A stretch of DNA of 64,000 nucleotides. Source: an uncultured Gammaproteobacteria bacterium. Its GTDB lineage: Bacteria > Patescibacteriota > Microgenomatia > Woykebacterales > RBG-16-39-9b. Every line of letters begins with the position of its first letter. Position 1 is the first letter of the stretch. This document shows positions 5,746-33,007 of the stretch, one piece after another. A program made the translations under genes and the position numbers. The stretch spans positions 35,976 to 99,975 of the forward strand of contig CAYIWY010000004.1 in the NCBI GenBank assembly GCA_964367355.1, given 5' to 3'. Below the pieces are notes generated by a model. The model was given only the letters and a program-made list of their open reading frames with translations, had not been told where the DNA came from and made no database searches.

Positions 5746-6138
5746 TCATTTTAAAAAACCTCCATTTATTAATATCGGCATTACGTGAGTTTTAACGTGG
5801 GAGCCTAACTCTAAAGTTGAATCAGTACTATACCAGATTGCTTCTTCGATTTCTTTACCATCGGGTTTTATATTCTCACCGATATTTGCCGAAAAAATAT
5901 AAGTGTCCCACTCTTCCAGAGTTTCCGGGTTTTTGTAAAGATAGTTGGCAACAAGCTTAATTGATGAGTCATCAACTTCAGTACTCAGTTCTTCCATAAC
6001 TTCACGAGTTAAGGTATCTTTAGTCGTTTCGCCTTCTTCCCCCCGACCTCCTGGAAGTTTGTAAACTGTTTCATCGACCTTCCGAACAAGAAGAACTTTA
6101 TTATCTTTTATGTGTGTTAAGTAACTTCGTCGTTTCAT
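5746..6138 (-). CDS. NUDIX hydrolase
   Basis: Nudix box GGRGEEGETTKDTLTREVMEELS. It sits 2 nt downstream of atpG on the same strand. Confidence 0.85.
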   Translation of the reverse strand: MKRRSYLTHIKDNKVLLVRKVDETVYKLPGGRGEEGETTKDTLTREVMEELSTEVDDSSIKLVANYLYKNPETLEEWDTYIFSANIGENIKPDGKEIEEAIWYSTDSTLELGSHVKTHVMPILINGGFLK

Positions 6139-6139
6139 A

Positions 6140-6997: not shown

Positions 6998-7000
6998 AAG

Positions 7001-8497
7001 TTACGCCTTAAATGATTTTTTGAAATCAACTGTAAATTTCTCTAACTCTTTTGTAATTTTCTCGGTTAAAACTTTCTCGTCCTTAATTTGTTTGAGTAGA
7101 TTTTTGCCTTTGGTGATTAAACTATCCAGGTATTTCTCCTGGAAAGAGCTGAGATTTTCAATTGCGATATCGTCTAGAAAACCATTAGTAACGGCCCAAA
7201 TTAAAACCACTTGCTGCTCGACTGGGATTGGGTTGTATTGGGGTTGTTTGAGAATTTCGACAATTCTACGACCGCGGTCAAGTTGGTTTTTTGTCGCTTC
7301 GTCTAGGTCTGAACCAAACTGGGCGAAAGCTTCGAGGCTGCGGAACTGTGCCAAATCAAGCCGCAGAGTTCCGGCAACAGATTTCATTGCCTTGATTTGG
7401 GCTGATCCTCCAACCCTGGAAACCGAGAGACCAACGTTGACAGCCGGGCGATTGCCTGCGTTAAACATATCCGATTCCAAGTAAATTTGTCCGTCGGTGA
7501 TAGAGATTACATTGGTTGGGATATAAGCTGAGACATCTCCGGCTTGAGTTTCGATAATTGGAAGAGCTGTCAAAGAACCGCCGCCATTATCCTTACTTAA
7601 ACGAGCTGCGCGTTCGAGTAGGCGAGAGTGGAGGTAAAAAATATCACCTGGGTAAGCTTCTCGACCAGAAGGTCGACGCAAAAGCAGGGAAATTTGACGG
7701 TAAGCCCAAGCGTGTTTTGAGAGATCGTCATAAATTGCTAAAGCATCTCTGCCTTGTTCCATAAAATACTCACCGATAGCACAGCCTGCATAGGGCGCTA
7801 GAAATTGCAATGATGCTGAATCCGAGGCTGAAGCTGCAACAACGATTGTATGATTCATTGCCCCATATTTTTCTAGAGTGTCGATGATTTGGGCAATTTT
7901 TGAAGTTTTTTGTCCGATAGCTACATAGATACAAATTACGCCGGAATCTTTTTGGTTAATGATTGTGTCAATGGTGATAGCTGTTTTACCAGTCCCCCGA
8001 TCACCAATGATCAACTCTCGTTGTCCACGCCCAATTGGAATCATACTATCAATTGCTTTAATACCGGTCTGTAGTGGGGTATTAACCGATTGTCTAGTAA
8101 TTACACCCGGAGCAATTTTCTCAATCGGATTGTCTTTGGTAGCTTTAAGTGGACCTTTTCCATCAATTGGGTTACCAAGCGGATCGACGACTCGACCGAT
8201 TAAACTTTCCCCAACTGGTATTGATAGAATTTTCCCGGTTGTTTCAACTTGATCACCTTCCTTTAGAATTTTGTAATCACCAAAAACAACAATACCAACT
8301 TGATCTTCTTCTAAGTTAAGTGCTAAACCAAAAAGTTCATAGGGAAGTTTGACTAGTTCGTTATAAGCAACTTCAGATAGACCTTCAACTTTGATAACTC
8401 CGTCCCCAATTTCAATTATTTTACCGACATTCTTTTTTGTCGTTGTTGTTTTTAATGATTCAATTTCCTTTTTAATTGTTTCTGCTAGTTTACTCAT
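7001..8497 (-). CDS. atpA: F1F0 ATP synthase subunit alpha
   Basis: Walker [11 protein letters not shown]; 498 aa. Confidence 0.95.
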
Positions 8498-19082: not shown

Positions 19083-19312
19083 ATTTCCTTCTCGTTACTT
19101 TTTAGAAAAGTAACCAAAACTTTCACCTTGCAGCGTAAGCTAAAGAAATTCAAGTCGCTCGTATACGTCGACAACTCGCCTTAAGAAAGTCTCAAACACG
19201 TCCGACTTAATATCTCACTTTGTTGAATTTCTTTCATACGCTTACTTGCAACGGTGAGTTAAGACTGATTAAAAAAGAGAAAGCCTAACTTGGGGTGCAG
19301 CAAGTTAGGCTT

Positions 19313-19351
<39 letters not shown>

Positions 19352-19789
19352 ATTGCAGATGCGGAACGAGTACGCTACTTCTTCCAACCCATCTTCACTG
19401 TGCACCCTACTCGAATTTGGGTTTGAAAGCATGGCGGGGGAGTACTAGAATTGTGCGCGCACACCCCTCTAGAATTTGCGTTGTCTGGGACGCAAACCTG
19501 CCGTACTCTCCCCATTGGCAGCTTTTTTGAGGGTTTGACTAGTGAACGACTCACATATTCCGATTTTGTCGGAACGTTTTTTTTGTCACTAGCGAGGGAA
19601 CCCTGCCTGACCTCTCACCACAACACTCCACCGCAACCAACTTAATCAATCACGGCAAAACAAACAACAAAGTTATAGGGGAGGTGCCAAGAACCACGGG
19701 AACCCGGTACCCTGTCCAAGTGTCATAAACCCGGCAAATCCGAAGTTCACCAGGCGCTGACTTTTGCCGCATCTCTCCCCAGAGGGCAC

Positions 19790-20060
19790 AATTCAAGTGT
19801 TTGCAATATACCGTATTGTGGCCAGAAAGTCAAGTTTGGGGAAAAAGAAGGCTCTCGCAGAGGGTGCGTACGAGAGCAGCGATGGCCAAAGGGAGGTGTT
19901 CGTGGTTCCTTCTGGCAAGTGAGCTCTACCTTAAGCTTGACTAGCACCGTTAAGTTCAAGGGGAAATAATCATCTGGGGTGAGAGACAAAAGTTTCATCG
20001 CCCACCCCTTGATGTCCACAAACACTGAAATTCAAAAGCCCCCGCCTGCCTGAGAAAATC
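19790..20060 (+). ncRNA. rnpB: candidate RNase P RNA-like structured RNA
   Basis: Recalled type-A landmarks appear in order: GAAAGUC, AGGGUGCGUACGAGAGCAGCGAUGGCC (cf. ACAGAGAGCAAACCGCCGAUGGCC), CAAGGGGAAAUAAU (cf. CAAGGCCAAAUAGG) and UGUCCACAAACACUGAAAUUCA (cf. GUCCACGACAGAACCCGGCUUA). A long-range 8-bp pair AGUGUUUG (19795) / CAAACACU (20020) is also present. Not confirmed by covariance search. Confidence 0.35.
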
Positions 20061-20200
20061 AGTGTTGCAACCAAATTTAACTCTCTCCAAAGCAATTGAG
20101 TGTAGCAAGTGAAAATTTTTCCGTCAACAAGGGAGCGGCTCGACTCTTGTTTAATCTTGATTTTTTCGATATAATCTTTCGGTAATTTTGTGGAATATTT

Positions 20201-23032
20201 ATGAAAGATAAAATAATAATTCGCGGTGCCTCCGAACATAATCTAAAAAATATTAATCTCGAAATACCCAAAAATTCCCTAGTTGTATTCACTGGCATAT
20301 CCGGGAGTGGAAAAAGCTCCCTTGCTTTTGACACAATCTATGCGGAAGGGCAAAGACGTTATGTCGAGTCGCTTTCAGCTTACGCTCGGCAATTTCTGGG
20401 GTTGATGGAAAAGCCAGATGTTGACCAAATTGAAGGCCTTTCGCCAGCAATTTCAATTGATCAAAAAACAGCTTCAAAAAATCCCCGTTCTACGGTCGGA
20501 ACTATTACTGAAGTTTATGATTACATGCGGCTTTTGTGGGCAAGAGTCGGTGTGCCGCATTGTTCGATCGACGGTAAAGCAATTAAGGCCCAAACGGTTC
20601 AGGAAATTGTCGACCAAATTCAAAACGAAATAAAGGAAAGCAAAAAAGAAAAACTATCGTTTATTCTTGCTCCGATAATTAAAAGTCGAAAAGGAATCTA
20701 TGAGGAAGTCTTCCGCGATTTGAAGAAAAAAGGCTTTGCTAGAGTACGAGTTGATAAAAAGATTTATGAATTGGACGAGACGCCAAGTTTAGATCGTTAT
20801 AAAATTCATGACATCGAAGTTGTCATTGACCGTCTTGCAGACCTGGTCGATGACCAAAGGGTAACGGAATCAGTCGAAACCGCTTTGCGCTTTGGTGAAG
20901 GTTTGGTTACTCTAGCGACCGAGGAGGGGGTTGATAAAACTTTTTCTGAAAAATTTGCTTGCCCGGAACACGGGCTTTCGTTGCCAGAGTTGGAACCAAG
21001 AACATTTTCCTTCAATAGCCCGCAGGGAGCTTGTCAGACCTGTGGGGGCTTGGGCGTAAAGCTAACAGTTGATCAAGATTTGGTAATACCAAATAAAAAC
21101 CTTTCAATTACAGAAGGGGCGATCCATCCTTGGAGTCGAATGATCTCGCATGATTCTTGGTCATCACGCAGACTGGACGCACTCGCTGTGCATCTGAACT
21201 TTTCACTTTCATCACCAATAAAAGATTTATCCAAAGAAGTGTTAGATATAATTCTTAACGGAAGTACAGAGGAAACGTTTCGGGTTTCAGGTCGCAATCG
21301 GTTTGGTCGGTCAATAACCTTTGATACTAGTTTTGAGGGTGTTGTCTCGGAATTGCTCAGACGCCATCGTGAAAGTGACAGTGATTGGGTCCGGAGGGAA
21401 ATCGAAAAATATATGCGCGAGGAAGTTTGCGATAATTGCAACGGCAATCGTCTCCGCAGTGATGTTCTCTACATCACGGTAGCTAACAAGTCTATTGTTG
21501 AGGTTGCAAACTATCCAGTAAGCACGGCTGCAAATTGGTTTTCGAAACTTTCGCTAAATTCAAGGGACCAACTAATCGCCAAGCAAATTCTCAAAGAAAT
21601 AAACAGCCGGCTGCGGTTTTTAATGGACGTTGGTTTGAATTATTTGACGATCAATCGTGCCAGTGCAACTCTTTCTGGTGGAGAAGCCCAAAGAATTCGT
21701 TTGGCCAGCCAAATTGGTTCTGGGTTGTCGGGGGTACTTTATGTTCTCGATGAACCAACAATCGGACTTCATCCAAAAGACAATGACAAGTTGATAAAGA
21801 CGCTTTTGGATTTGCGTGACCTAGGAAATACGGTGATTGTTGTCGAGCATGATCGGGAAGTTATGCTAGCCGCTGATTATCTGGTTGACATTGGTCCTGG
21901 CGCAGGGGAACACGGCGGCAGAATAATTGCTCGTGGGACTCCCTCGGAAGTAATTGCCGATCCTAACTCTCTGACCGGGCAATATTTAGCTAACAAAAGA
22001 AAAATCGGGGAAATTAAAACAAAAAGAGTCGTGAATGAAAATGTTTTGAAAATAGTTGGCGCAAGTCAGCATAACTTGAAAAACATTGATGTCGAAATTC
22101 CCCTAAGTAAGTTTGTTGCTGTCACTGGAGTTTCGGGAAGTGGTAAATCGACTCTGGTTGAAGATATTTTGAAAAAAGCACTTTCTGCTAAATTTTATCG
22201 TTCCAAAGAAAAACCAGGTGTTCATAAAGAAATTATTGGAACCGAACATATCGACAAGGTAATTGATATCGATCAGTCCCCAATTGGTCGGACTCCGCGA
22301 AGTAATCCGGCCACGTATACCGGAGCCTTTACCAATATTCGGGAGCTTTTTTCCTCCACTCCTGATGCTAAGGCGAGAGGTTACAACGCTGGACGATTTT
22401 CTTTTAACGTCAAAGGTGGGCGTTGTGAGACCTGTGAGGGTGATGGAGTAATAAAAATCGAGATGCAGTTTTTACCGGATGTCTACGTAACTTGTGAAAC
22501 CTGTTTGGGTAAACGTTACAACCGAGAAGCTTTGGAAATATTCTACAAAGGGAAAAATATTGCCGATATATTAGATATGACAATTGCCGAAGCAACAGAG
22601 TTCTTTGATAAAATTCCGTCAATCAACGCTAAATTTAAGACATTACTTGAAGTAGGTTTGGGTTATATGCGTCTTGGGCAAGCAGCGACAACCCTTTCGG
22701 GTGGGGAAGCGCAAGGAATTAAACTTGCTGCCGAGTTGTCAAAAAGAAGTTCTGGGAAAACGCTTTATATTCTAGATGAGCCGACCACTGGTTTACATTT
22801 TGCCGATATTGATAATTTGCTCTCGGTGCTGCATCGATTAGTGGAGATTGGTAATACAGTTTTAATAATTGAGCACAATTTGGATGTAATAAAGAGCGCT
22901 GATTACATTATCGATCTTGGTCCCGAAGGTGGGGAAAAAGGTGGTTACTTGGTCGCCGCCGGAACGATCAAAGAAATTATCGCCAATAAAAAAAGTACTA
23001 CCGGAGAATATCTTGCTAAGATGAAACTTTAG
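20201..23032 (+). CDS. uvrA: excinuclease ABC subunit A
   Basis: Two ABC ATPase modules (GISGSGKSSL and GVSGSGKSTL) plus zinc-finger cysteine pairs. Confidence 0.95.
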   Translation: MKDKIIIRGASEHNLKNINLEIPKNSLVVFTGISGSGKSSLAFDTIYAEGQRRYVESLSAYARQFLGLMEKPDVDQIEGLSPAISIDQKTASKNPRSTVGTITEVYDYMRLLWARVGVPHCSIDGKAIKAQTVQEIVDQIQNEIKESKKEKLSFILAPIIKSRKGIYEEVFRDLKKKGFARVRVDKKIYELDETPSLDRYKIHDIEVVIDRLADLVDDQRVTESVETALRFGEGLVTLATEEGVDKTFSEKFACPEHGLSLPELEPRTFSFNSPQGACQTCGGLGVKLTVDQDLVIPNKNLSITEGAIHPWSRMISHDSWSSRRLDALAVHLNFSLSSPIKDLSKEVLDIILNGSTEETFRVSGRNRFGRSITFDTSFEGVVSELLRRHRESDSDWVRREIEKYMREEVCDNCNGNRLRSDVLYITVANKSIVEVANYPVSTAANWFSKLSLNSRDQLIAKQILKEINSRLRFLMDVGLNYLTINRASATLSGGEAQRIRLASQIGSGLSGVLYVLDEPTIGLHPKDNDKLIKTLLDLRDLGNTVIVVEHDREVMLAADYLVDIGPGAGEHGGRIIARGTPSEVIADPNSLTGQYLANKRKIGEIKTKRVVNENVLKIVGASQHNLKNIDVEIPLSKFVAVTGVSGSGKSTLVEDILKKALSAKFYRSKEKPGVHKEIIGTEHIDKVIDIDQSPIGRTPRSNPATYTGAFTNIRELFSSTPDAKARGYNAGRFSFNVKGGRCETCEGDGVIKIEMQFLPDVYVTCETCLGKRYNREALEIFYKGKNIADILDMTIAEATEFFDKIPSINAKFKTLLEVGLGYMRLGQAATTLSGGEAQGIKLAAELSKRSSGKTLYILDEPTTGLHFADIDNLLSVLHRLVEIGNTVLIIEHNLDVIKSADYIIDLGPEGGEKGGYLVAAGTIKEIIANKKSTTGEYLAKMKL

Positions 23033-23034
23033 AA

Positions 23035-23085
23035 AAAGAAAAGCACAACCAGAGTGGCCGTGCTTTGTTGATCCCGCTCGTTATT
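23035..23085. terminator. hairpin repeat R1 (AAAAGCACAACC...GGCCGTGCTTTGTTGATC)
   Basis: First of four about 50-nt copies (R1-R4). The hairpin folds best as minus-strand RNA and is flanked by A/T runs. This copy directly follows the uvrA stop. Confidence 0.55.
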
Positions 23086-23700
23086 CGTTTCAGCAAGGAC
23101 CAATACAATGACTTCCGGCTCCTTTTAACCGCTTAGCATTTTGCACTCGACGAGCTCTTGCCCTCTCCTTCAACTCTTTGTCAGCTCTCTTCAACCTGAC
23201 CTCAAGAGGTTCCTTGTCCGCTTCAGGTTTCTTCTGCACTTTTCCTCCAGTACTTTGGCTTCTTCAGATCACAAAAACCGTCTGCTTACTGTTCCGGCGA
23301 GGGGCTCGAGATACTTTCCTTCTGGCTGCTCGCTGTTCTTCAACTAATCTTCGCTCAGATTCCCGAATGATTCGATCAATCTTGTCTGGGTTTGCATGCG
23401 AGTTACGATACTTGATCTGTAATCGTTCAGTCGCATTACCTGCCCCCTATGGAAACTTTAAGAAGAATCTATGTGCTGCCCTAACAGTGCGCTCTTGAAC
23501 TCGTCTCCAGTAAGTGTGTCGAGCAGATACGCGTTCTGCTGTGTTCTTACCTTGAGCCAGCTCCGAAGGTCTTTTGTCACCAACTTTAGATTGCCAACAA
23601 TTGACCCAAACAGGTTCTGTAAAAGACATTTTCTCTCCTCGCCTTCTTTTACTTCTTCTCTTGTGTTGATTACCTGCATTTTACTTTCTGGAGTAGCCAA
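23074..23700 (-). pseudogene. frameshifted remnant of a charged, helical protein gene (higher GC)
   Basis: The minus strand yields protein-like segments in three frames (MQVINTREEVKEGEE..., RRLVEEQRAARRKVSRAPRR..., KVQKKPEADKEPLEVRLKRADKELKERARARRVQNAKRLKG). No tyrosine-recombinase motifs were recognised. Confidence 0.25.
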
Positions 23701-23760
23701 AATGCAAACAGCGAATTCTTAAGCTATGCCACTTTTTGGAGTAACCAAAATGCAAACAGC
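23674..23760 (-). promoter_or_regulatory. two tandem copies of a conserved minus-strand promoter (TTGCAT-N18-TAAAAT/TGGCAT)
   Basis: The 22-mer GCTGTTTGCATTTTGGYTACTC occurs here twice and again at 29927-29967. Confidence 0.45.
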
Positions 23761-23836
23761 TAATTTTCAAGATACTTGAGTAACGCTGTGCTACTTTTTG
23801 AAGAAAAATTAAGCAACTGAAAAATTTAAAAAAAAG

Positions 23837-23893
23837 AAAAGCACAACCAAGATTGGTCATGCTTTGTTGATCTCACTCGCTATTTGGTTGTTG
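23837..23893. terminator. hairpin repeat R2
   Basis: Matches R1, R3 and R4. Sits at the 3' end of the minus-strand gene 23894..24112. Confidence 0.55.
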
Positions 23894-24112
23894 TCACATA
23901 TCACCGATCCTAAAGGCTCTGGCAAGCAGGTAAGTTGCAATGCTAAAGAACCCTAATCCGGCTGGAATAAACCCTCCGGCGTACTCTGGTCTGGTCACAG
24001 CCGAAAAAACAAACACGGCAGCTACAACAAAAAACCCGATGGACGGAAAGACTAAAGCTAGCCAACGTTTGTTGACGTTGGTCTCAATTGGAGTCTGTCG
24101 ACATGACCTCAT
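23894..24112 (-). CDS. small two-TM membrane protein (72 aa)
   Basis: GGAGGT site followed by an ATG start; preceded by the conserved GUAGCCGAAAGG 5'UTR motif. Confidence 0.5.
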   Translation of the reverse strand: MRSCRQTPIETNVNKRWLALVFPSIGFFVVAAVFVFSAVTRPEYAGGFIPAGLGFFSIATYLLARAFRIGDM

Positions 24113-24135
24113 TTAATCTACCTCCGGCCTTTCGG

Positions 24136-24336
24136 CTACTTCTTCCGACTACTCGAAACAAGTTCGTACTTAACCCCCGACTTGTCGAGAGCTTCCAGGT
24201 GGGCATCTCCGATAAGGCATACGCCAGCATTGAACCACATTGGTGCTTCTGTGGCAAAGATGACCTCTTTTGCCCTCGAGTATTCCTCGGGTTCGAATCG
24301 AACTCTGGGGCATTCGACCCCTTCTACTCTTGGCAC
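24136..24336 (-). CDS. small hypothetical protein (66 aa)
   Basis: GGAGGAGG site followed by a GTG start. Preceded by a second copy of the GTAGCCAAAAGG-type 5'UTR motif, upstream of the 72-aa membrane protein. Confidence 0.4.
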   Translation of the reverse strand: MPRVEGVECPRVRFEPEEYSRAKEVIFATEAPMWFNAGVCLIGDAHLEALDKSGVKYELVSSSRKK

Positions 24337-24562
24337 TATTTCCTCCTCCAGCCTTTTGGCTACCTTTTTCGCCTTACTTCAATCTTCTTCATCTGGTTCC
24401 AAACAAATTGGATTGTACAAAGTGCAAGAAAGGTGAAAACTCCTCCTAGCACTGGCGTGCCGACATACAAATACCACTGTTCCCAGACTGGCATTAAACC
24501 TCCAACTACCTTCCATCCAATTATTGATGATTACCTTGCATTGTACTTTCAAAAAACCAATT

Positions 24563-24592
24563 TTGCAATTTGTTTGCCCATGCAGCGTATAA
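24563..24592 (+). promoter_or_regulatory. repeated promoter module copy 1 (TTGCAA-N19-TATAAT within TTTGYYYRYRCAGCGTATAAT)
   Basis: The 15-nt core CAGCGTATAAT with upstream TTTGC is shared with copies at about 25811-25840 and 30002-30032. Confidence 0.5.
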
Positions 24593-24616
24593 TAGCTGTA
24601 ACTGAGAGGTTTAGAG

Positions 24617-24820
24617 ATGGAGGTAGAAATGGCAGAGGAGTCCATTGCAGAGCAAAAGTATCAGGCCGCTCGGCGAATCCGATCTATTCTTGGGGTAGTA
24701 GATGACTTCTTCGTTGAACCGACTAAGGATCGCGAAGAGTTAGCACTTCAGCAGCTCGAACAGCTCCCCGAGCGTCTGCGTTCGTACGGTGAGCTGTGCA
24801 GAAAGAGTGAGAAGAGTTAA
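24617..24820 (+). CDS. small acidic helical protein
   Basis: GGAGG site before the ATG. Protein-like composition (MAEESIAEQKYQAARRIRSILGVVDDFFVEP...). Confidence 0.5.
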   Translation: MEVEMAEESIAEQKYQAARRIRSILGVVDDFFVEPTKDREELALQQLEQLPERLRSYGELCRKSEKS

Positions 24821-24849
24821 GCAGTTGACGAAAACCAAGGAGGGTGTTT

Positions 24850-24960
24850 ATGCTATTACTGAGTTCTGGAGATTTGGGTGCCACCTTAGTTGGTATTGTC
24901 TGCGTAGGATTGCTGCTATTCGGTACTCTTGCTCTTGTTATACTGACTAAACACGGATAA
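24850..24960 (+). CDS. 36-aa single-TM peptide (MLLLSSGDLGATLVGIVCVGLLLFGTLALVILTKHG)
   Basis: AAGGAGGGTGTTT site then ATG. It shares this RBS-plus-start context with the 25892 gene. Too short for the ORF track. Confidence 0.4.
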   Translation: MLLLSSGDLGATLVGIVCVGLLLFGTLALVILTKHG

Positions 24961-24977
24961 ACCAAGGAAACATCCCA

Positions 24978-25004
24978 CAAAGGGAAAGAATGCACTCTTA
25001 CCCT
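24978..25004 (+). terminator. repeated terminator module copy 1 (CAAAGGGAAAGAATGCACTCTTACCCT), degenerate
   Basis: Related to the near-perfect hairpin AAAGGGAAAGAATGAACTCTTTCCCTTTC+T-run at 26678-26715. Confidence 0.4.
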
Positions 25005-25204
25005 ACATACCAACGGCTTTCTTCTTCGAGAGAGCCGTTTTCCTTTTTAGTCAACTCTCTGCCAAATAAGCAAGTCAATAGGGTTTAAAGAGATTTATCG
25101 GTTCTAACGATCCAAAAGTAAAATTTTTCTGTGTTAAATGCTTGGAAGTTGACAATACTTGTTGAATTGGTTAAAATACGTCAAGAATCACTACGGAAAG
25201 CGCC

Positions 25205-25741
25205 TCATAAGGTTTTGTCCTTACGAGGTTCTTTCTTTTTATACTCCACTTTATTTTTTAAATCTGAGGCAAATCCCAAGTATTCTGAAGGAAATCCTTT
25301 AAGAAGTGCAGAATATTTTCTCTGGTTTGGTATAAGAATTTTCTCTAGTTTTTTCCGTTTAACGAGATAGTCTACAAGGCAGTAGAAATCACCGTCCCCA
25401 GTGATAATAACCGCCTTATCATAATTACCAAAATCGATCATCGCTTGCAGTACCAATTCTGCGTCACAATTGCCCTTGGTTTTTCCATCTTTATATCTCA
25501 GAACTGGTTTAAAAATAAGAATGTAGCCTTTTTCCTGAAGCGATTTGTATAAATCGGCATTTTCTTCTATGTACCCTAGAAATAAATACGCTTTATCGAC
25601 AAGATACTTATCTGCCAGGTATTTACGAAACCGTAGATAATCAAGTTTCCAACCCAACTCTCTTACCGAAAGGTTTAGGTTTTGACTGTCTATGAAAGCG
25701 AAATTTTTAGACTTTTGTTTCGGGTTTCTGGTTTTTAGCAT
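25205..25741 (-). CDS. NYN / LabA-like domain protein (predicted RNase)
   Basis: FIDSQNL...NCDAELVLQAMID...AVIITGDGDFYCLVDYL, the typical NYN-domain pattern. Confidence 0.75.
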   Translation of the reverse strand: MLKTRNPKQKSKNFAFIDSQNLNLSVRELGWKLDYLRFRKYLADKYLVDKAYLFLGYIEENADLYKSLQEKGYILIFKPVLRYKDGKTKGNCDAELVLQAMIDFGNYDKAVIITGDGDFYCLVDYLVKRKKLEKILIPNQRKYSALLKGFPSEYLGFASDLKNKVEYKKKEPRKDKTL

Positions 25742-25810
25742 TGTTTAGTAATTTTAGCACAAGAGAAAGACCAAGATTTATAGGGAATAACTAAGTAACT
25801 TTGAGAAACC

Positions 25811-25840
25811 TGTAATTTATTTGCTATTGCAGCGTATAAT
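25811..25840 (+). promoter_or_regulatory. repeated promoter module copy 2
   Basis: TTTATTTGCTATTGCAGCGTATAAT. Confidence 0.5.
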
Positions 25841-25891
25841 GGTTGCAACAAGAAGAGATGGAAGTTGGCTTAAAGCCAAGGAGGGTGTCAG

Positions 25892-26104
25892 ATGTTACTG
25901 GCAAGTGGAATCCTATTGATTGCAGTGTGGATGGTGTTTGAGTGGCACTATGGATGGGGCCGAGGACGGGTAGCTCCGCGTGCGTTTGATCTTCGCCAAA
26001 AGTATGGTGATAGGGCCTTGCTATTCCTAATCCCACTGCGATTAGCGATGACAGCAACAGCGGTTGTAGGATTGATCCTCGTTGTCAAATATTTCGGCAA
26101 GTAG
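25892..26104 (+). CDS. small two-TM membrane protein (70 aa)
   Basis: CCAAGGAGGGTGT site and an MLLAS start, paralogous in context to the 24850 peptide. Confidence 0.5.
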   Translation: MLLASGILLIAVWMVFEWHYGWGRGRVAPRAFDLRQKYGDRALLFLIPLRLAMTATAVVGLILVVKYFGK

Positions 26105-26209
26105 TAACTTCTGTCGGTGTCGAAAGACTTAACGTGCGTCCGTTAATCGCACCTTTTGCAGCTCATCGAAAACGAAGGACTGTAGCTGGCGAAAGCCAAG
26201 GGGGAGAGG

Positions 26210-26635
26210 ATGGTCGATCAAGATTCTGTAATCCAATCGATTCGTGATTGGGTGGGACAGCATCGAGCGGTTGCGGAAACTGAAGCGGATTCAATTCTCA
26301 AATCTCTGCAGGAGTTTTGCGAGCAGGTTCTGCAAACTGAGCAAGAAGCTGAGATTTCATTCTCGGCAATTGAGGAAGGTAGGATCCACATACGTGTGAT
26401 GCTTACCTGGCCAGGGATGGACATGTTCGATGCCGATCATTCAACGAGAATGAGGTGGGTCGGGCAATCGTTCAGCATAGTCGAACAAGATAGAGATATC
26501 CACCCTTATCTTGGTTACGTACAAAATGAGTGGAGAGTTGGGTCAACCTTCGCAGACTACACCAAGAGTCACCTTGATTTCCTGGATGCCGAAGAAAATA
26601 AAATTGGGGAGTATGAGTTTATTGGGGTTTGGTAA
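26210..26635 (+). CDS. hypothetical protein (141 aa)
   Basis: GGGGGAGAGG site before the ATG. Protein-like, with higher GC than the surroundings. Confidence 0.5.
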   Translation: MVDQDSVIQSIRDWVGQHRAVAETEADSILKSLQEFCEQVLQTEQEAEISFSAIEEGRIHIRVMLTWPGMDMFDADHSTRMRWVGQSFSIVEQDRDIHPYLGYVQNEWRVGSTFADYTKSHLDFLDAEENKIGEYEFIGVW

Positions 26636-26677
26636 AATGCTAAGCTCCATAACCTAGTGCAATTAGGTAAACAGACA

Positions 26678-26715
26678 ACAAAGGGAAAGAATGAACTCTT
26701 TCCCTTTCTTCTTTT
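26678..26715 (+). terminator. repeated terminator module copy 2 (near-perfect hairpin + T-run)
   Basis: AAAGGGAAAGAATGAACTCTTTCCCTTTCTTCTTTTC. Confidence 0.6.
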
Positions 26716-26818
26716 CTTTTTGTAAACCGTTGCAAATCGCCTACTAATCGACTATAATACGGCTAGTATTACATCGTCTTGTATCGCAAGCGATATAATT
26801 CGACTATACATATATACC

Positions 26819-27859
26819 ATGTTTAAACCTCGCTATACTATTACTGATCGGCTGCTGGCTAATATTAAAAGGATCAATTCTTTGGTAAGCGAACTCAATA
26901 ATAAGCGCTTTCCCTCTGTAGTTTTACTTGAGTTAGAGAGAACTGCTAGAGAAGTTTCTTCCTATGCTTCAACCAGCATTGAAGGTAACCCGCTTCCGTT
27001 AACTGAAGTCAAAAAGATCCTTAAGTCAAAACCTATTTCATTGCGCGATAGTGAAAAAGAAGTCCTCAACTATAACCAAGCTCTTAGGGAATTAAACAGT
27101 GAACTCGATAAGGGAGAAATTCGGCTTTCTTTGAGTCTTGTTTTAGATATTCAAAAACAAGTAACTGAAGGTTTACTGCCTTCTTTTGAATCAGGGCAGC
27201 TGCGCGAAAAGGCGGTAGTTGTCAATGATCCAAGAACTGGTCAGGTTGTTTATTTGCCTCCTGATGCAGCTGAGGTAAAACCGTTAATGGAAGAACTAGT
27301 CGAATTCATTAGTAACAGGACTCAAATCGATCCACTTATTCTGGCTGGTATATTTCACAAACAAATGGTAATTATCCACCCGTTCATGGATGGCAATGGC
27401 AGAACAACACGCCTAGTTACCAAAGTACTGCTGGCAGCCATGGGTTTGAATACCTTTAACCTCTTTAGTTTTGAAAACTACTATAACCAAAATGTCACCA
27501 AATACTTCCAAACAGTGGGGGAGTCTGGAAATTATTATGAACTAGTTGAAAAAATAGATTTTACTCATTGGTTGGAATATTTCACCGAAGGAATTATTGA
27601 TGAACTTCTTCGGGTCGAAAAACTGTTACCTAAGACCGCTATAAGTCCGGAAACTCAGTTAAAACCACATCACTTGAAACTCATCGGGTCTATCCAAGAA
27701 AAGGGATTTATCTCCGACCGAGACTATGCAGAGCTGGTCAAGCGTGCTAAGGCAACGAGAACCCAGGATTTTAAGAAGCTCCAAGAACTAGGCTTAATTG
27801 AGCGCAAAGGCAAGGGCAAGGCAACTTATTATATCTTGAAGGGAGAAAGTAAAATTTGA
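26819..27859 (+). CDS. Fic/Doc family protein
   Basis: Canonical Fic motif HPFMDGNGRTTR; 346 aa. Confidence 0.9.
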   Translation: MFKPRYTITDRLLANIKRINSLVSELNNKRFPSVVLLELERTAREVSSYASTSIEGNPLPLTEVKKILKSKPISLRDSEKEVLNYNQALRELNSELDKGEIRLSLSLVLDIQKQVTEGLLPSFESGQLREKAVVVNDPRTGQVVYLPPDAAEVKPLMEELVEFISNRTQIDPLILAGIFHKQMVIIHPFMDGNGRTTRLVTKVLLAAMGLNTFNLFSFENYYNQNVTKYFQTVGESGNYYELVEKIDFTHWLEYFTEGIIDELLRVEKLLPKTAISPETQLKPHHLKLIGSIQEKGFISDRDYAELVKRAKATRTQDFKKLQELGLIERKGKGKATYYILKGESKI

Positions 27860-28061
27860 GGATTTATACCTAAAAGGATGAGATGCCTTATAAGCTTGTT
27901 TTGTCCTAGCTTAGCCAAACAGATGAATGGGAACACTAGAAACAACCTATAACGGACTTATCACTCATCAAATATAGATATTAACAATTTTGTCACATAT
28001 AAGCAACCTTCAAGCGTGTTTAAACGAGAAAAAGGAAAATAACTTTTGATATAATCCAGTT

Positions 28062-28352
28062 ATGATGAACGAGCCTTCTAAAAGAATGGGGATAATTTTT
28101 GGGTTTTTGGCTCTAGGAATAGCTATCTTATCCTTAGCCTTTATTATTCCAAATACACTTTATTTATTGAAAGTGGGATTTACCATTCAAAACATTTTAA
28201 CTGGAAAACTACCAGAGAATTACGTTACTGGAGATGGATCAACTTTTAATGCTGTTGAGACAGTAATGTGGGTCGGGGGAGTTTTAACCATTCTTTTTTG
28301 TCTAATTTCTACTATTTTATTATTTAAATCCCAAAAGGTTGTAAGGAACTAG
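28062..28352 (+). CDS. small membrane protein (96 aa, 2-3 TM)
   Basis: Hydrophobic segments and its own TATAAT upstream. Confidence 0.45.
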   Translation: MMNEPSKRMGIIFGFLALGIAILSLAFIIPNTLYLLKVGFTIQNILTGKLPENYVTGDGSTFNAVETVMWVGGVLTILFCLISTILLFKSQKVVRN

Positions 28353-28397
28353 TTACAAAGCTAGCTTTTTGTTGGACAATAGTACTTTATAGAAAGA

Positions 28398-28453
28398 GCG
28401 AAGCACGGCCAAGTTGGTCGTGCTTTGTTGATCTCACTCGCTATCGGTTGTTG
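28398..28453. terminator. hairpin repeat R3
   Basis: GCACGGCCAAGTTGGTCGTGC hairpin plus the TTTGTTGATCTCACTCGCTAT tail. Overlaps the 3' end of the 28441..28641 gene. Confidence 0.55.
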
Positions 28454-28641
28454 TTTATCACTGGCTTGGTCTTCGCCTGATCGGTGTCCTTGTCTGAGTT
28501 GCCGCCTTGGGTCAGATATGCTGGTGTTAGAACTTCTCTAAGCTGTCCGATTGGAAGACTATCGATACAGCTGGACCACAGCCTTGGATGGAGATCGCGA
28601 TTCATCCAAAGGTACAACCGCTCAGTTGCGTTACTCTTCAT
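28441..28641 (-). CDS. small hypothetical protein (66 aa)
   Basis: AGGAGAGGAAATA site then ATG, placed immediately after the stop of the 61-aa membrane protein. Confidence 0.4.
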   Translation of the reverse strand: MKSNATERLYLWMNRDLHPRLWSSCIDSLPIGQLREVLTPAYLTQGGNSDKDTDQAKTKPVINNNR

Positions 28642-28655
28642 TATTTCCTCTCCTC

Positions 28656-28841
28656 TTACTCCAGTAAAGTTGCTCTCATACCCCATGCAATTAAAGGGGC
28701 GCCGACAACCATAGCAACTACAGCGAACATCAATCCCACTTCACGTCTTTTTTCGAATCTGACGGTTGCAACCGCAGCCAGACAGATAAAAATTCCCACG
28801 ACCAACGCCAAAGATCCAAGTAGTTTAAGTAGAAGCTCCAA
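28656..28841 (-). CDS. small two-TM membrane protein (61 aa)
   Basis: GGAGGA site followed by a TTG start; preceded by the conserved GUAGCCGAAAGGCGAGGAGG 5'UTR motif. Confidence 0.45.
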   Translation of the reverse strand: MELLLKLLGSLALVVGIFICLAAVATVRFEKRREVGLMFAVVAMVVGAPLIAWGMRATLLE

Positions 28842-28903
28842 TTGATCCTCCTCGCCTTTCGGCTACTTCCGTCCCGTTTGATTATCAATATTATACAACA
28901 TTC

Positions 28904-29281
28904 TTGCTGCTGAGAGGTATAATTATTAAAACAAGAAAAACCGGAGCAATGAAACTTCCAAATTCGGAACAGGCCATCGTTCCTGAAAAGAAATTAACAG
29001 AATATTTACTATCTGAGACTCATGCGGTGGGAAAATTTAAAGCCAGGTTTTTCCGCCGGTTGGGTTTTGACTTGACAAATGCTAGTCTTTTGCAGAAAGA
29101 AATTATGAACCTGGTTCAAGTACAAGACGTAGAGAATATTATACCATCAAATTATGGTACCAAATATATCGTGAAAGGTGCTATCAAGACACCTATTGGT
29201 GAAAGTGTTAGAATAAAAACGGTCTGGATCATTGAGAAAAACCAGACACAACCAATTTTTATTACGGCTTATCCTGTCTAG
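28904..29281 (+). CDS. DUF6883-like protein (putative toxin-like partner of DUF4926)
   Basis: EKKLTEYLLSETHAVGKFKARFFRRLGF pattern recalled for this family, immediately upstream of a DUF4926 gene. Family assignment is from memory. Confidence 0.5.
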   Translation: MLLRGIIIKTRKTGAMKLPNSEQAIVPEKKLTEYLLSETHAVGKFKARFFRRLGFDLTNASLLQKEIMNLVQVQDVENIIPSNYGTKYIVKGAIKTPIGESVRIKTVWIIEKNQTQPIFITAYPV

Positions 29282-29295
29282 GCGAAAAGGAGTAT

Positions 29296-29529
29296 ATGTT
29301 TAAAGAATTAGATACTGTGGTTTTCACTCATAATATTGATAATTACGGCCTTGAGAAAGGCGATATTGGTACAATTGTTCATACTTATGGTGCTGAAAGA
29401 GCTGTGGAAGTTGAGGTGGTGAGAGCTGACGGTAGGACTGTTGCGGTACTTACATTGGAGCCTAATGACATACGTAATATAACAAGGGACGAAATTCTTA
29501 AGGTGAGAGAATTTGCTACCAGTAATTAA
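29296..29529 (+). CDS. DUF4926 domain protein
   Basis: LDTVVFTHNIDNYGLEKGDIGTIVHTY...VEVVRADGRTVAVLTLEPNDIR, a typical DUF4926 sequence. Confidence 0.65.
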   Translation: MFKELDTVVFTHNIDNYGLEKGDIGTIVHTYGAERAVEVEVVRADGRTVAVLTLEPNDIRNITRDEILKVREFATSN

Positions 29530-29651
29530 TTTCCTAATAATGATACCTCTAATCATTTATCAAGGTTCCACTAGCCTTTAACTACTTTGGTTATTAACTG
29601 AATTTTTAATTTTAAGAAAATAATTTAGTAACTAAAGAAATTTAAAAAAAA

Positions 29652-29700
29652 GGAAAAGCACAACCAGATTGGCCATGCTTTGTGTTGATCTCGCTCACGA
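29652..29700. terminator. hairpin repeat R4
   Basis: AAAAGCACAACCAGATTGGCCATGCTTTGTGTTGATCTCGCTC, at the 3' end of the 29739..29879 minus-strand gene. Confidence 0.5.
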
Positions 29701-29738
29701 TTCAGCTGTGAAAGGTTTTTGTTGACCTTTTCGACTAA

Positions 29739-29879
29739 TCATTTGATCTTCGCTTCTCTCACCGAACGTGGTATTCGTCTTTGCGCCTTAACTTTCTTGA
29801 GAAAGGGCTTAACTACTTCCTCAACCCCTTTCTGCACCGAACGTCGAATTTCATCTGGACTAGGTGGCGGATTCGACAT
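29739..29879 (-). CDS. 46-aa basic small protein (MSNPPPSPDEIRRSVQKGVEEVVKPFLKKVKAQRRIPRSVREAKIK)
   Basis: GGAGG site then ATG, preceded by the third copy of the GTAGYCGAAAGG 5'UTR motif and the conserved minus-strand promoter. Too short for the ORF track. Confidence 0.35.
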   Translation of the reverse strand: MSNPPPSPDEIRRSVQKGVEEVVKPFLKKVKAQRRIPRSVREAKIK

Positions 29880-29926
29880 TACCCTTAACCTCCTAAACCT
29901 TTCGACTACTTCCTTTATCGTTATTG

Positions 29927-29967
29927 CCTACATTTTACTTTTTGAGTAACCAAAATGCAAACAGCTA
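29927..29967 (-). promoter_or_regulatory. conserved minus-strand promoter copy 3 (TTGCAT-N17-TAAAAT)
   Basis: GCTGTTTGCATTTTGGTTACTCAAAAAGTAAAAT. Confidence 0.45.
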
Positions 29968-30001
29968 CTTTTCTAAAAATAATTAAGCGACTCTAAGGAA
30001 C

Positions 30002-30032
30002 TTGCAGTTTATTTGCTGCCACAGCGTATAAT
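30002..30032 (+). promoter_or_regulatory. repeated promoter module copy 3
   Basis: TTGCAG-N19-TATAAT within TTTATTTGCTGCCACAGCGTATAAT. Confidence 0.5.
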
Positions 30033-30378
30033 TCAAATAATCAGAGATCAAAAGACGAGAGGAGGTCGAAGCGTGGAGGTTTATTTCCCAGTTATTATCG
30101 AGACTCTGGAAGCTAATGATGGTTTGGTACTTGTAACTTCCTTTGTTGCAGGAAAACCATGGACATTCTGGACCAAAGCAGAAAGTGTGGTTCTGGACTG
30201 TCAGCCACTGGTAAAAGACGTGTTAACAAGAGGTTACAGCGGTTGGGTTAAAGGAACGATCCATTCCCAGAAACTAGGCTTTACTTTTGTTGAAGTAGGG
30301 GATTTTCTAATCCCTGTGTTGCAAGACCTATTGAGAGAGAACCTCGACTTCAAAGTAAACAAGAGGACCGAAGGTTAG
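30013..30378 (+). CDS. hypothetical protein (about 105-121 aa)
   Basis: GAGAGGAGG site then a GTG at about 30073 gives the likely start. Followed by an AAGGGCGACC...GCCGTCCTTTTCTTTTTT terminator. Confidence 0.45.
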   Translation: MLPQRIIQIIRDQKTRGGRSVEVYFPVIIETLEANDGLVLVTSFVAGKPWTFWTKAESVVLDCQPLVKDVLTRGYSGWVKGTIHSQKLGFTFVEVGDFLIPVLQDLLRENLDFKVNKRTEG

Positions 30379-30500
30379 AAAGAACAAGGCATTAACAAGG
30401 GCGACCAATAGGCCGTCCTTTTCTTTTTTAAAACTATTGCAAATTTGGAAAAATCATTTTATAGTATTGCTGTCAGTTTTAGTTACAGACTAATACACAC

Positions 30501-32582
30501 ATGTCTCCAAGATTCAAATCAAAACGTGAAACATTCAAGATTTCAGAAAACAGTAAAGATTTGCAATTAGATTTTCAAAAAAATTATTCCAAGACTAATT
30601 TTTTGGTTGAGTTGATGCATAAATTAAACGCCGCCAAGAGTGAGGATCATTTACTTAAGTTGACTGCTGAGGCTTGTTTTAAAATTTTTGATATTGACGG
30701 TATTGCTGTCTTTTTCCCAGATAAGGAAAAAAAATTTCTTGTGGCGAAAATCATTCAAGGAATAGAAAAAAATCGGTTAATTAAAGCACAGAGGCTAGTA
30801 CTCTTCAAAAAAATGCCGCTTGAAGCTAACTATTCAGTTGCAAAGGCCTATATTAGTAAGAAGATTGCTATAGTCCAAAGTACCTTAACGCCCTCTTTAA
30901 AGAAGGTTGGCATAAAAACCGTAATTGCACTACCAATGGTGGTGAACAATGAATCGCTAGGTGTATTAGCCTTGGGTTTTGGGAGAAAAGCTGCTCCTAA
31001 TGAAAGCGACCAGCGAACCGGAGAGATGTTGGCAACCCACCTCGCAACTAGTATTTACAATTTAACATTAGTTTCCTCACTTAAAACTCAAAATGAATGG
31101 TTACAGATCGTCCAAGAGAATATCAGGGAAGGTTTTTCGTTGATTGGGCCGGATGATGTAATTTATTACACCAACAAAACTGTAGCTAAACTATTCGGGA
31201 CTAAGGGAAATATAGTGGGAATGAAACGTGACGAAATTGTTAAACATTGGAACAAATTACACCGCTTCCGAGTTGAGCGGTTTTTCGAAAGTAGTGATTT
31301 AAAAAAAGTGATTTTTGAAAAAAAAGAGCCTTTTCTTGGCGGCTTAATGAAAGTTTATTCAAACCCGCCAAGGTTTGTTGAAGCAAACTATTATCCTGTA
31401 ATGCAAAACAAAAAATTATTAGGTATGGCCGCTTCTTATCGTGACGTGACCAAGGAAAAAAAGCAAGAGGTAGTACTTGAGGAACAAATGCAAATCCTAG
31501 AGACTGAAAAGGAACGTTTTGAAGCGATTGTCAGTAATGTTGAAGAGGGTATTTGTCTAGTCGACAGCAGTTTGCGAATTTTGCATATGAATAGTGCTTG
31601 CGAAAATACATCTGGGTGGGGTTTAGAGGAAGCAAGGGGTGAGTATTACTATAAAGTTTTTCGTTGCCACACAAAATTAGGGCTTTACTATCCGGACTTT
31701 TCCCCGATTGAGAAGGTTTTGATTACCAAAGAGCCGACAGTTTACGAAGAGTATTTACAACACAACCGTGAGGGTGACGAGTTTTGGGTTGGAGTTAGTG
31801 CTTCTCCCATTTTGAATTCGCTTGGAGAAGTGAGCGAAATAGTTTTGGTAATTCGTGACATATCTTCTCTGAAAGAGGTTGAGAAAGCAAAAAGTGAATT
31901 TGTTTCAATTGCTTCTCACGAGCTACGGACCCCACTAACGGTTGTTAACGGCTACCTTTCCTTACTTCGAGATGGCGATCTTGGGGATTTTACTACACAA
32001 GAGTCCCGCACTCGTTTGGGTGAAATTTTGGAAAAAGTCTCCAATGAAACTACTCGATTGACTCATTTAGTGAGTGATCTACTGAATGTTTCCCGAATTG
32101 AGGAAAATCGAATTGTTCTTAATAGAAAAAGTCAGGAGTTAACAGGTGTAATTGAAAATGTTGTTGAAGAAATGAGAATAGGAGCTATGAGGAAAAAAAT
32201 AAAGCTTTATTACAAAAAAGCTCAAGGTGAGCAAATTTATGCAAACTTTGATTTTGATAAAATTTGTCAAGTGATTATAAATTTAATTGATAATTCAATG
32301 AAATTTACACCAGGAGGAGGAGAAATAATTATTAATTCATGGCAAGAAGACAGTCGTGTTTTTGTTGAAGTAGCGGACAACGGAAGCGGAATACCTCACA
32401 AACTTTTACCGGTTGTCTTTGAAAAGTTTCAACAAGTACCCGGTAGTTATCTGAAGGAAAATCGGGGAACAGGACTGGGGCTTTTTATCGTTAAGTCGCT
32501 TGTAGATCTTCATGGCGGTGACATTAATATTGAGTCAGAAGTCGGGAAAGGTACAAAAGTTACTTTTAGTGTTCCAACTTAA
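30501..32582 (+). CDS. sensor histidine kinase with GAF/PAS-like input domains
   Basis: H-box FVSIASHELRTPLTVVNGY and HATPase_c motifs (NLIDNSMKF, GTGLGL). Confidence 0.85.
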   Translation: MSPRFKSKRETFKISENSKDLQLDFQKNYSKTNFLVELMHKLNAAKSEDHLLKLTAEACFKIFDIDGIAVFFPDKEKKFLVAKIIQGIEKNRLIKAQRLVLFKKMPLEANYSVAKAYISKKIAIVQSTLTPSLKKVGIKTVIALPMVVNNESLGVLALGFGRKAAPNESDQRTGEMLATHLATSIYNLTLVSSLKTQNEWLQIVQENIREGFSLIGPDDVIYYTNKTVAKLFGTKGNIVGMKRDEIVKHWNKLHRFRVERFFESSDLKKVIFEKKEPFLGGLMKVYSNPPRFVEANYYPVMQNKKLLGMAASYRDVTKEKKQEVVLEEQMQILETEKERFEAIVSNVEEGICLVDSSLRILHMNSACENTSGWGLEEARGEYYYKVFRCHTKLGLYYPDFSPIEKVLITKEPTVYEEYLQHNREGDEFWVGVSASPILNSLGEVSEIVLVIRDISSLKEVEKAKSEFVSIASHELRTPLTVVNGYLSLLRDGDLGDFTTQESRTRLGEILEKVSNETTRLTHLVSDLLNVSRIEENRIVLNRKSQELTGVIENVVEEMRIGAMRKKIKLYYKKAQGEQIYANFDFDKICQVIINLIDNSMKFTPGGGEIIINSWQEDSRVFVEVADNGSGIPHKLLPVVFEKFQQVPGSYLKENRGTGLGLFIVKSLVDLHGGDINIESEVGKGTKVTFSVPT

Positions 32583-32626
32583 GTTTGCAACAGGGACTTA
32601 TACTTGGTAAAATCTCTTAGCTACAT

Positions 32627-33007
32627 ATGAACGACACTCTTAAAGTTTTACTAATCGAAGATGAAAAAGAGGTGGCTGAACTCTACCGCTTGAAACTAAG
32701 TCTTGATGGCTACAACGTTTTTGTTGCAGCAGATGGGGAGAGTGGTTTGAAGAAAGCGATTGAGGAAAAACCAGACCTAGTTTTTTTGGATATCAAAATG
32801 CCTGGTATGGATGGTTTTGAGGTTTTGAAACATTTACGCAAAAACGATGTTACAAAAAAGATTCCAATTGTAATTCTTTCCAATTTTGACGAGCAAGAAA
32901 TGATCGAGAAGAGCTTAGCGTTGGGGGCTAATGAATATTTGATAAAATCACAGTTCAATCCTAGTGAACTATCCGCCAAAACCAAAAACTGGTTTAAAAA
33001 AGAGTAA
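32627..33007 (+). CDS. single-domain response regulator (receiver)
   Basis: VLLIEDE...LVFLDIKMPGMDGF...KSQFNP. Confidence 0.85.
   Translation: MNDTLKVLLIEDEKEVAELYRLKLSLDGYNVFVAADGESGLKKAIEEKPDLVFLDIKMPGMDGFEVLKHLRKNDVTKKIPIVILSNFDEQEMIEKSLALGANEYLIKSQFNPSELSAKTKNWFKKE

Follow-up and report, generated by a model that had tools for sequence, protein, structure and literature searches.

The 64-kb stretch of contig CAYIWY010000004.1 analysed here (the window) carries the core gene order uvrB–uvrA–HK–RR–transglutaminase–uvrC, in which HK is a GAF/PAS histidine kinase (Pfam) and RR a response regulator, and an accessory island of ~7.4 kb with 18 open reading frames (ORFs) lies between uvrA and HK. 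The organism is placed in the Saccharimonadia (TM7, Patescibacteria) through its UvrA relatives, and contigs identical to the window were recovered from two Hainich groundwater wells, H51 and H52, and in a few further runs. Below, c1 to c4 denote cassettes on the minus strand and A to C those on the plus strand; R is a repeated terminator module, P(−) and P(+) are repeated promoter modules, and related loci are numbered with L. SD stands for Shine–Dalgarno sequence and TM for transmembrane segment. The features are as follows.

23033–30436, both strands: the island, the complete insertion, from the uvrA stop (23032) to the −35 of the HK promoter
23028–23093, minus: terminator module R1, with stop-proximal CGAGCGGGATCAAC, 12-bp hairpin and U-run, abutting the uvrA stop codon
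23090–23629, minus: c1 cargo, a basic ORF of ~180 codons with in-frame TAG and TGA stops (pieces m2_60 and m1_49)
23651–23818, minus: P(−) promoter array of c1, with a proximal unit, a second unit and a degenerate distal unit
23826–23891, minus: terminator module R2
23894–24494, minus: c2 operon of m5, m4 and m3, all SD-led
23894–24112, minus: m3, 72 aa, membrane protein
24114–24150, minus: leader motif GAAGUAGCCGAAAGGC, directly before the m3 SD
24136–24336, minus: m4, 66 aa
24339–24373 (m4), 28843–28870 (m7) and 29885–29915 (m8), minus: further leader copies
24360–24494, minus: m5, 44 aa, one TM
24495–24624, both strands: bidirectional promoter region c2/A, a diverged P(−) and a P(+) module
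24629–25047, plus: cassette A, with p1 (63 aa) and p2 (36 aa, TM)
24962–25009 and 25012–25047, plus: terminators of cassette A, the shared module and a second hairpin with U-run
25205–25741, minus: NYN-domain gene, 178 aa (Pfam NYN E = 2e-12; PADLOC NYN E = 3e-6)
25786–26716, plus: cassette B, with junction remnant and P(+) module (25786–25871) and terminator module (26663–26716)
25892–26104, plus: p3 of cassette B, 70 aa, two TM
26210–26635, plus: p4 (p4_141) of cassette B, 141 aa, acidic orphan
26819–27859, plus: Fic-domain gene of SoFic type, 346 aa (Pfam Fic E = 3e-18), low GC, no SD
27876–27970, minus: DUF3800-V RNA motif (Rfam RF02964, 55.7 bits against a gathering score of 37.4)
28062–28352, plus: low-GC 2-TM protein, 96 or 88 aa, leaderless-like start
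28387–28930, minus: cassette c3, with R3, m6, m7, a GUAGCCGAAAGGC leader and the non-P(−) promoter TGTTGTATAAT
28387–28453, minus: terminator module R3, with a weaker U-tract
28441–28641, minus: m6, 66 aa
28656–28841, minus: m7, 61 aa, two TM
28949–29529, plus: low-GC DUF6883/DUF4926 pair (Pfam)
28949–29281, plus: DUF6883, 110 aa (Pfam E = 3e-31)
29296–29529, plus: DUF4926, 77 aa (Pfam E = 3e-18)
29607–29992, minus: cassette c4, with junction remnant (29607–29633), R4, m8, leader, P(−) unit (29904–29980) and junction unit
29641–29710, minus: terminator module R4
29739–29879, minus: m8, 46 aa, basic
29996–30429, plus: cassette C, with P(+) module (29996–30062), p7 and R-type hairpin terminator (30397–30429)
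30073 (GTG start) to 30378, plus: p7, 101 aa
about 30437: −35 (TTGCAA) of the HK promoter, the right limit of the island

An initial annotation of this DNA had described the island as built from repeated promoter, leader and terminator modules. A repeat finder and self-BLAST, run over 22800–30700, recovered the copies at frequencies beyond chance and in the island only. R1–R4 are four copies of a 60–100-nt module, 76–85% identical. On the minus strand R1, R2 and R4 form 12-bp stems followed by U-runs and are thus predicted to be canonical intrinsic terminators; all four proposed copies are real, R3 having a weaker U-tract. An R1-type module also lies 3′ of uvrA in L183, L184 and L185. The terminator thought to be common to the three plus-strand cassettes, the CAAAGGGAAAGAATG module, is shared by A and B only, and C ends in an R-type hairpin in the plus orientation.

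The P(+) pattern TTTGC-N5-CAGCGTATAAT has exactly three copies, on the plus strand at 24573, 25820 and 30012, so that its assignment to all three plus-strand cassettes was correct. The 22-mer of the minus-strand promoter, GCTGTTTGCATTTTGGYTACTC, also has exactly three copies, on the minus strand at 23691, 23739 and 29944, where shuffled sequences lead one to expect none. It had been called conserved across the minus-strand cassettes; exact copies are found in c1 (two in tandem, 48 nt apart) and c4, the copy in c2 has diverged and c3 has a different promoter. The proximal unit of the c1 array combines a −35 TTGCAT, a spacer palindrome and a −10 TAAAAT; it is joined by a second 48-nt unit lacking a −10 and by a degenerate distal ‘junction’ unit, AAATTAAGCAACT. 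Across lineages the 48-nt unit is present in one, two or three tandem copies plus a degenerate distal copy. Where neighbouring cassettes point the same way, the first one's terminator and the promoter array that follows it make up a composite terminator–promoter module. At the c2/A boundary the two divergent promoters share a palindromic −35, TTGCAA (24562–24567), a layout repeated in L182. The inverted repeat in the P(−) spacer, between TTGCAT and TAAAAT, exists in three sequence versions (TTTTGG..CCAAAA, TTTTAGC.GCTAAAA and TTTTGTC.GACAAAA); in this small sample 95% of positions pair, and at two pairs both partners have changed. The repeat could be an operator or a stem-loop.

The modules seem to belong to this site. 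Motif and profile searches gave no further copies elsewhere in the window or, across 88 other genomes, in 1.5 Mb surrounding uvrA, and blastn of the island against 80 uvrA loci of GTDB species gave no match. In IMG/VR, scans with two 16-base motifs returned 47 and 35 single matches, about the chance expectation, and both the 22-mer and a degenerate cross-lineage P(−) pattern were absent. Across metagenomes, the 22-mer turned up only in the same organism (L164) and once in an unrelated contig (L165), inside a 701-aa ORF, a match judged to be chance.

Directly upstream of several SDs stands a leader motif. With up to two mismatches, GTAGCCGAAAGGC matches seven times (0.99 expected), and four of the matches are directly 5′ of island SDs, adjoining the SD without sequestering it. 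Two of these four leader copies lie within the c2 operon, and c1 has no GAAA leader. The basic c1 ORF, which had been taken for a frameshifted remnant, is a predicted pseudogene of another kind: frameshifting was rejected, as the breaks are nonsense codons within a single frame. It has no Pfam or PHROG match, and its remnant recurs in L184 at 5260–5440.

From these parts the cassettes are recognizable as SD-led units that run from a promoter through a leader with SD and one to three small orphan ORFs to a stop codon and a predicted intrinsic terminator. They differ from their surroundings in composition, with a GC of 0.45–0.49 in cassette segments, ~0.40 in the core and 0.33–0.40 in the low-GC inserts. 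All 13 cassette ORFs have GGAG(G) 5–10 nt before the start codon, compared with 6 of 36 core ORFs (those beyond the island that reach 150 aa or more, with starts assigned crudely). Many core genes have a leaderless look, as do the NYN, Fic and 2-TM genes, which suggests that SD-independent or leaderless initiation is widespread in the organism. Many core genes also show a TATAAT-like box within ~10 nt of the start codon. By composition and start signals, then, the site holds two accessory classes, the higher-GC SD-led cassettes and low-GC, leaderless-style genes of toxin or defence type.

Pfam confirmed the proposed Fic, NYN and DUF6883/DUF4926 calls, and the small membrane proteins hold as well. 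The NYN gene (GC 0.35) has no SD and a leaderless-like start. The Fic gene combines the Pfam domains Fic and HVO_A0114 and matches the PADLOC SoFic profile at E = 2e-46 over residues 11–339 of 346; a profile test found the full-length match, Fic domain and C-terminal winged helix–turn–helix by which SoFic single-gene defence is recognized. Its score against the NCBIfam SoFic equivalog is 73.5 bits, under the cut-off of 550, and we therefore regard it as a SoFic relative with a predicted defence role, not as an equivalog. The DUF3800-V motif lies 17 nt past the Fic stop, convergent with Fic, and comes with a promoter-like TTGCTT-N17-TAATAT of its own and a trailing U-run. The motif is defined by its association with DUF3800 protein genes (PMC5737381), none of which was found near it here. 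No multi-gene defence system was recognized at the site. The low-GC genes are placed precisely where two cassettes meet, with the distal junction unit of an array on one side and the following R on the other; this applies to the NYN gene, to Fic with the RNA motif and the 2-TM gene, to the DUF6883/DUF4926 pair, and to a Phd/ParE pair in L184.

Comparison with relatives establishes the island as an insertion. The site is empty in five other species (L187, whose UvrA is 90% identical to that of the window; L186, 85%; L188-192, 84%; L193, 80%; and L085, 65%), where 60–83 nt separate uvrA from the kinase gene and the −35 of the kinase promoter starts a few bases past the uvrA stop. From this adjacency, the window’s 7,468 nt are an insertion into a spacer of ~15 nt. 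Control of the island by the adjacent two-component system was rejected, since HK and RR belong to the core and occur at empty sites as well, and since RR is a stand-alone receiver.

Four same-species lineages, L181–L184, with a backbone 94–97% identical to the window in nucleotide sequence, carry inserts with the same module families and different cargo, so that the expected variation in presence and content among related genomes is borne out. The L183 insert is exactly one minus-strand cassette of 384 nt: an R-like terminator with compensated stem changes, a 78-aa ORF, a GAAAGGC leader, GCAUCCGAAAGGC, with its SD, and a P(−) unit. In L184 the insert is no shorter than 3 kb and is arranged as R, a 61-aa membrane ORF with an GUAACCGAAAGGC leader, the c1 pseudogene remnant, three tandem P(−), Phd/ParE (5695–6243), R, m6/m7 orthologues, two P(−) and an rve-type DDE transposase (6966–7970) truncated by the contig end. 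The rve transposase shows that insertion sequences also use the site. In L181 and L182, cassette C (P(+) module, p7 and terminator) is kept beside the kinase gene, and its divergent neighbour is a 79-aa ORF and another ORF, respectively, instead of m8. The m7–m6 cargo stands behind P(−) in L184 and behind a different promoter with the GUAGCCGAAAGGC leader in the window; together with the lack of relationship among the cargo proteins, this shows that modules and cargo reassort. Inserts between uvrA and HK thus range from 0.06 to 7.5 kb and differ in content. No target-site duplications were seen at the site.

The deviant composition allows another reading, in which the cassettes are the decayed remnant of a single integrated foreign element, the repeats are its regulon of promoters, operators or iterons and terminators, reflecting the control of one repressor rather than shuffling, and host-style genes interrupted it later. 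The GC of the cassettes and their uniform SDs, both unlike the core, fit such an origin, as do the palindromic promoter spacer and tandem 48-nt units, which resemble operators or iterons, the orphan small genes, which recall phage early or moron regions, and the c1 pseudogene. We nevertheless consider it unlikely. The island lacks integrase, replication, structural and lysis genes and has no PHROG match, blastn against 50,697 phage and 72,556 plasmid records returned nothing similar, and IMG/VR lacks the module motifs. In its smallest form, that of L183, the insert amounts to one 384-nt cassette and not to a larger element, and the lineages differ in their sets of cargo rather than as nested deletions of one element.

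The cargo itself is small and diverse. All-against-all BLASTP detected no paralogy among the cargo proteins. Three genes with orthologues are, judging by their dN/dS (ratio of nonsynonymous to synonymous substitution rates), under purifying selection: p7 at 0.16–0.24, with orthologues P0002 and P0003 86–89% identical, and m6 at 0.42 and m7 at 0.10, whose L184 orthologues are 91% and 79% identical in protein sequence. No homologue of p4 was found among 5.8 billion proteins, and its AlphaFold model was unusable (predicted local distance difference test score, pLDDT, 41). An exhaustive search with p4_141 returned only weak matches (~30% identity, E 2e-7 to 3e-4), which are repeated stretches inside giant proteins of 1,000–2,000 aa (P0124-P0128).

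Six cassette ORFs (36–72 aa) encode predicted membrane proteins with one or two TM, mostly paired with a small soluble protein. Such pairs, at a site that also holds a bona fide type II toxin–antitoxin (TA) system and defence-type genes, could point to type I TA loci, small toxic membrane-peptide loci or bacteriocin/immunity pairs, with the conserved untranslated regions providing shared post-transcriptional control. We give this reading very little credence: the membrane proteins are not mutually paralogous, no convincing antisense promoter was found over the small ORFs, the leader motif lies beside an SD that it does not sequester, and c1, c4 and C encode soluble or basic proteins only.

Traces of recombination extend into the flanking genes. 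Nucleotide identity between the window and L183 is 95–97% along the backbone, falls to 82–89% over the last kilobase of uvrA and to 61–84% over HK and RR, and is 95% again at 33.1 kb; the HK/RR regions compared were 30587–33000 of the window and L183:4330-6760. Synonymous divergence (dS) is 1.38 in HK and 0.39 in uvrA, and with an HK dN/dS of ~0.11 the excess is imported divergence rather than positive selection. This suggests that divergent HK/RR alleles came in together with island variants. Within the island, c3 is a mosaic relative to L184, with m6 92–98% and m7 63–72% identical. In L175 (Hainich well H52, L175:1-110), position 23762 is joined to 29967 exactly across the 24-nt exact repeat GAGTAACCAAAATGCAAACAGCTA, common to c1 and c4; the join links the c1 promoter array (window 23703–23762) to the c4/C junction and would amount to a 6.2-kb deletion.

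Together, these observations are best explained, with a probability of about 0.68, by a species-specific, strain-variable hotspot of the ‘minimal mobile element’ (MME) type, filled with moron-like cassettes whose modules serve as portable regulation. The shared modules, whose promoters and terminators are predicted to be active, would supply each new ORF with its own transcription start and a strong translation start, and would insulate it from adjacent genes. As repeats of 50–100 nt with exact stretches of 14–24 nt, they would probably act at the same time as portable homology for RecA-type recombination, which would duplicate, delete and swap cargo. We infer this second role from the reassortment, the copy-number variation and the L175 join. 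Entire island variants may travel between lineages when DNA is taken up and recombines with the homologous core genes on either side. Given the natural competence of Saccharibacteria (PMC10633639), transformation followed by homologous recombination is a plausible route.

Several observations weigh against this explanation. No unambiguous recombination event at a module was caught in the contigs compared, and module copies only 72–86% identical are a poor RecA substrate. In the window’s own population, about 30 contigs drawn from several samples agree in arrangement and are 99.8–100% identical, with L175 as the exception, so turnover would be evolutionary, not rampant; the L175 join lies at the end of a contig of 2x coverage and may be a genuine minor variant or an assembly chimera. 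The within-species comparison comprises five lineages, several as short contigs. The leader ‘hairpin’ claimed initially has just 3–5 bp, is thermodynamically marginal and folds no better than shuffled sequences. The cassette ORFs have no Pfam, PHROG, PADLOC or NCBIfam match. For p7, the best of five models (pLDDT 78) predicts a small all-beta protein that resembles only generic small SH3/Tudor-like beta-barrels (Z ≤ 4.2) and nothing in BFVD.

The precision with which modules bracket cargo raises a further alternative, dedicated cassette capture, in which the R hairpins, the spacer palindromes or both are sites of a recombinase encoded elsewhere, of a site-specific or single-strand-hairpin type, and the island is an integron-like platform with self-promoted cassettes. 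Hairpin and palindrome structure is kept by compensatory changes, also among R variants, low-GC genes are inserted exactly at cassette boundaries, and the hotspot is limited to one intergenic spacer. Even so, we judge this alternative highly improbable. A recombinase was not found in the island, target-site duplications are lacking, cassettes occur in both orientations with their own promoters, and the raised divergence seen in the core genes on either side speaks for homologous recombination. It is likewise very unlikely that the R hairpins and palindromic 48-nt units are recognition sites of a dedicated recombination system in bacteria of the candidate phyla radiation (CPR). If they were, this would be a new gene-cassette capture platform in CPR, in which complete promoter-to-terminator units circulate, unlike promoterless integron cassettes.

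An integron has an adjacent intI tyrosine recombinase, attI and the promoter Pc, and its promoterless, co-oriented cassettes end in attC, an imperfect bipartite palindrome with a GTTRRRY core. The island shares with integrons an array of small, mostly orphan cassettes at one site, each with a hairpin-forming repeat. It differs in having no intI, attI or Pc and no recombinase domain in any ORF; R is an ordinary perfect 12-bp hairpin with U-run, the GTTGATC found here does not fit GTTRRRY, and cassettes lie on both strands, each with its own promoter module. An integron was rejected for want of intI and attC and because the cassettes are self-promoted.

The MME-type hotspot with moron-like cassettes has several precedents. 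Phage morons, as reportedly described by Juhala et al. in 2000 and by Hendrix, are autonomous promoter–gene–terminator units of deviant GC. The cassettes resemble them as self-contained units with GC and translation signals unlike their surroundings, and differ in lying outside a prophage and in having regulatory parts that are homologous between cassettes. Defence and TA islands offer a second likeness, through the SoFic-like Fic, the NYN nuclease, DUF6883/DUF4926, and the Phd/ParE and insertion-sequence transposase of L184 at one variable site; here, however, most genes are unannotated small-protein cassettes with shared modules.

Closest in architecture are the promoter-early stem-loop (PeSL) cassettes in hyperplastic regions of T4-type phages (Arbiol et al. 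2010, PMC2839356; Comeau et al. 2014, PMC4122927). A PeSL spans the interval between the stop codon of one gene and the start codon of the next; it comprises an AT-rich stretch, a sigma-70-like promoter with a stem-loop, often placed between −35 and −10, and an SD (PMC2839356). PeSLs adjoin small ORFans in the most plastic region, and relatives differ by indel or replacement between the motifs (PMC2839356, PMC4122927). The island has the same repeated composite of sigma-70-like promoter and stem-loop, in the P(−) spacer palindrome and in R hairpins directly upstream of P(−), and likewise ORFan cargo, which differs between shared modules in L181–L184 and the window. Unlike PeSLs, it lies between chromosomal uvrA and a kinase gene of a CPR bacterium, not in a T4-type phage, and one site is seen as against ~50 per phage genome. 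Here, the strong terminator (R) is an element apart from the promoter palindrome, promoter units are tandem and both strands are used. In the phages, promoter and terminator activity has been demonstrated and recombination between motifs yields mini-circles; in the island, the one hint of such recombination is the L175 join across the 24-nt repeat.

MMEs, as defined by Saunders & Snyder (2002) in the wording quoted in PMC3082526, have conserved flanking genes, strain-variable whole-gene cassettes and homologous recombination; in Neisseria, exchange is attributed to transformation and homologous recombination (PMC3082526). The likeness lies in conserved uvrA and HK and variable whole-gene content. 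The window’s island has no mobility gene, and the divergence of its flanks is consistent with import; however, L184 carries the rve transposase, and no transfer event was observed. The host here is a Saccharimonadia bacterium, and regulatory modules are reused. To our knowledge, MMEs have not been described as made of reused promoter, leader and terminator modules.

Hotspots, TA and defence islands, morons, MMEs and PeSLs are thus each already known, and the cassette-shuffling concept put forward initially, although correct about hotspot variation, has precedents. As stated initially, the island contains no integrase, transposase or tRNA. The literature searched held no account of modular cassettes of this sort in the chromosome of Saccharibacteria or of any other bacterium; what appears to be new is a PeSL-like modular architecture in a bacterial, specifically CPR, chromosome at a single species-specific site. 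How the tiny genomes of CPR/Patescibacteria gain and test new genes is little understood, and the site offers a well-delimited natural case, a single spacer turned species-specific landing pad for plug-and-play small-protein units. For the genetics of Saccharibacteria, now feasible via natural competence (PMC10633639), the modules offer candidate parts: strong promoters, leaders for ribosome binding, and terminators. The locus is also tractable for measuring recombination-driven gene turnover in an epibiont, and the island is a source of selected small proteins, both membrane and soluble.

Outside the island, the uvrB–uvrA gap (19083–20200) contains an ORF-free stretch of ~760 nt with a GC of about 0.50 (19370–20130), whose minus strand folds at −265 kcal/mol (z = −2.9; 0 of 20 shuffles as good), with a centroid near the minimum-free-energy structure. 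Compared with two same-species relatives, perfectly conserved blocks alternate with variable helices, and 19 of 192 predicted pairs keep pairing despite changes on both sides. No Rfam family matched, and we regard the stretch as a candidate unannotated large structured RNA. The same gap is far shorter in more distant relatives (360–665 nt). Downstream of uvrB there is a terminator-like hairpin (19278–19312), and directly 3′ of it a tandem hexanucleotide, CAGACG, is repeated in ~8 copies (19305–19352).

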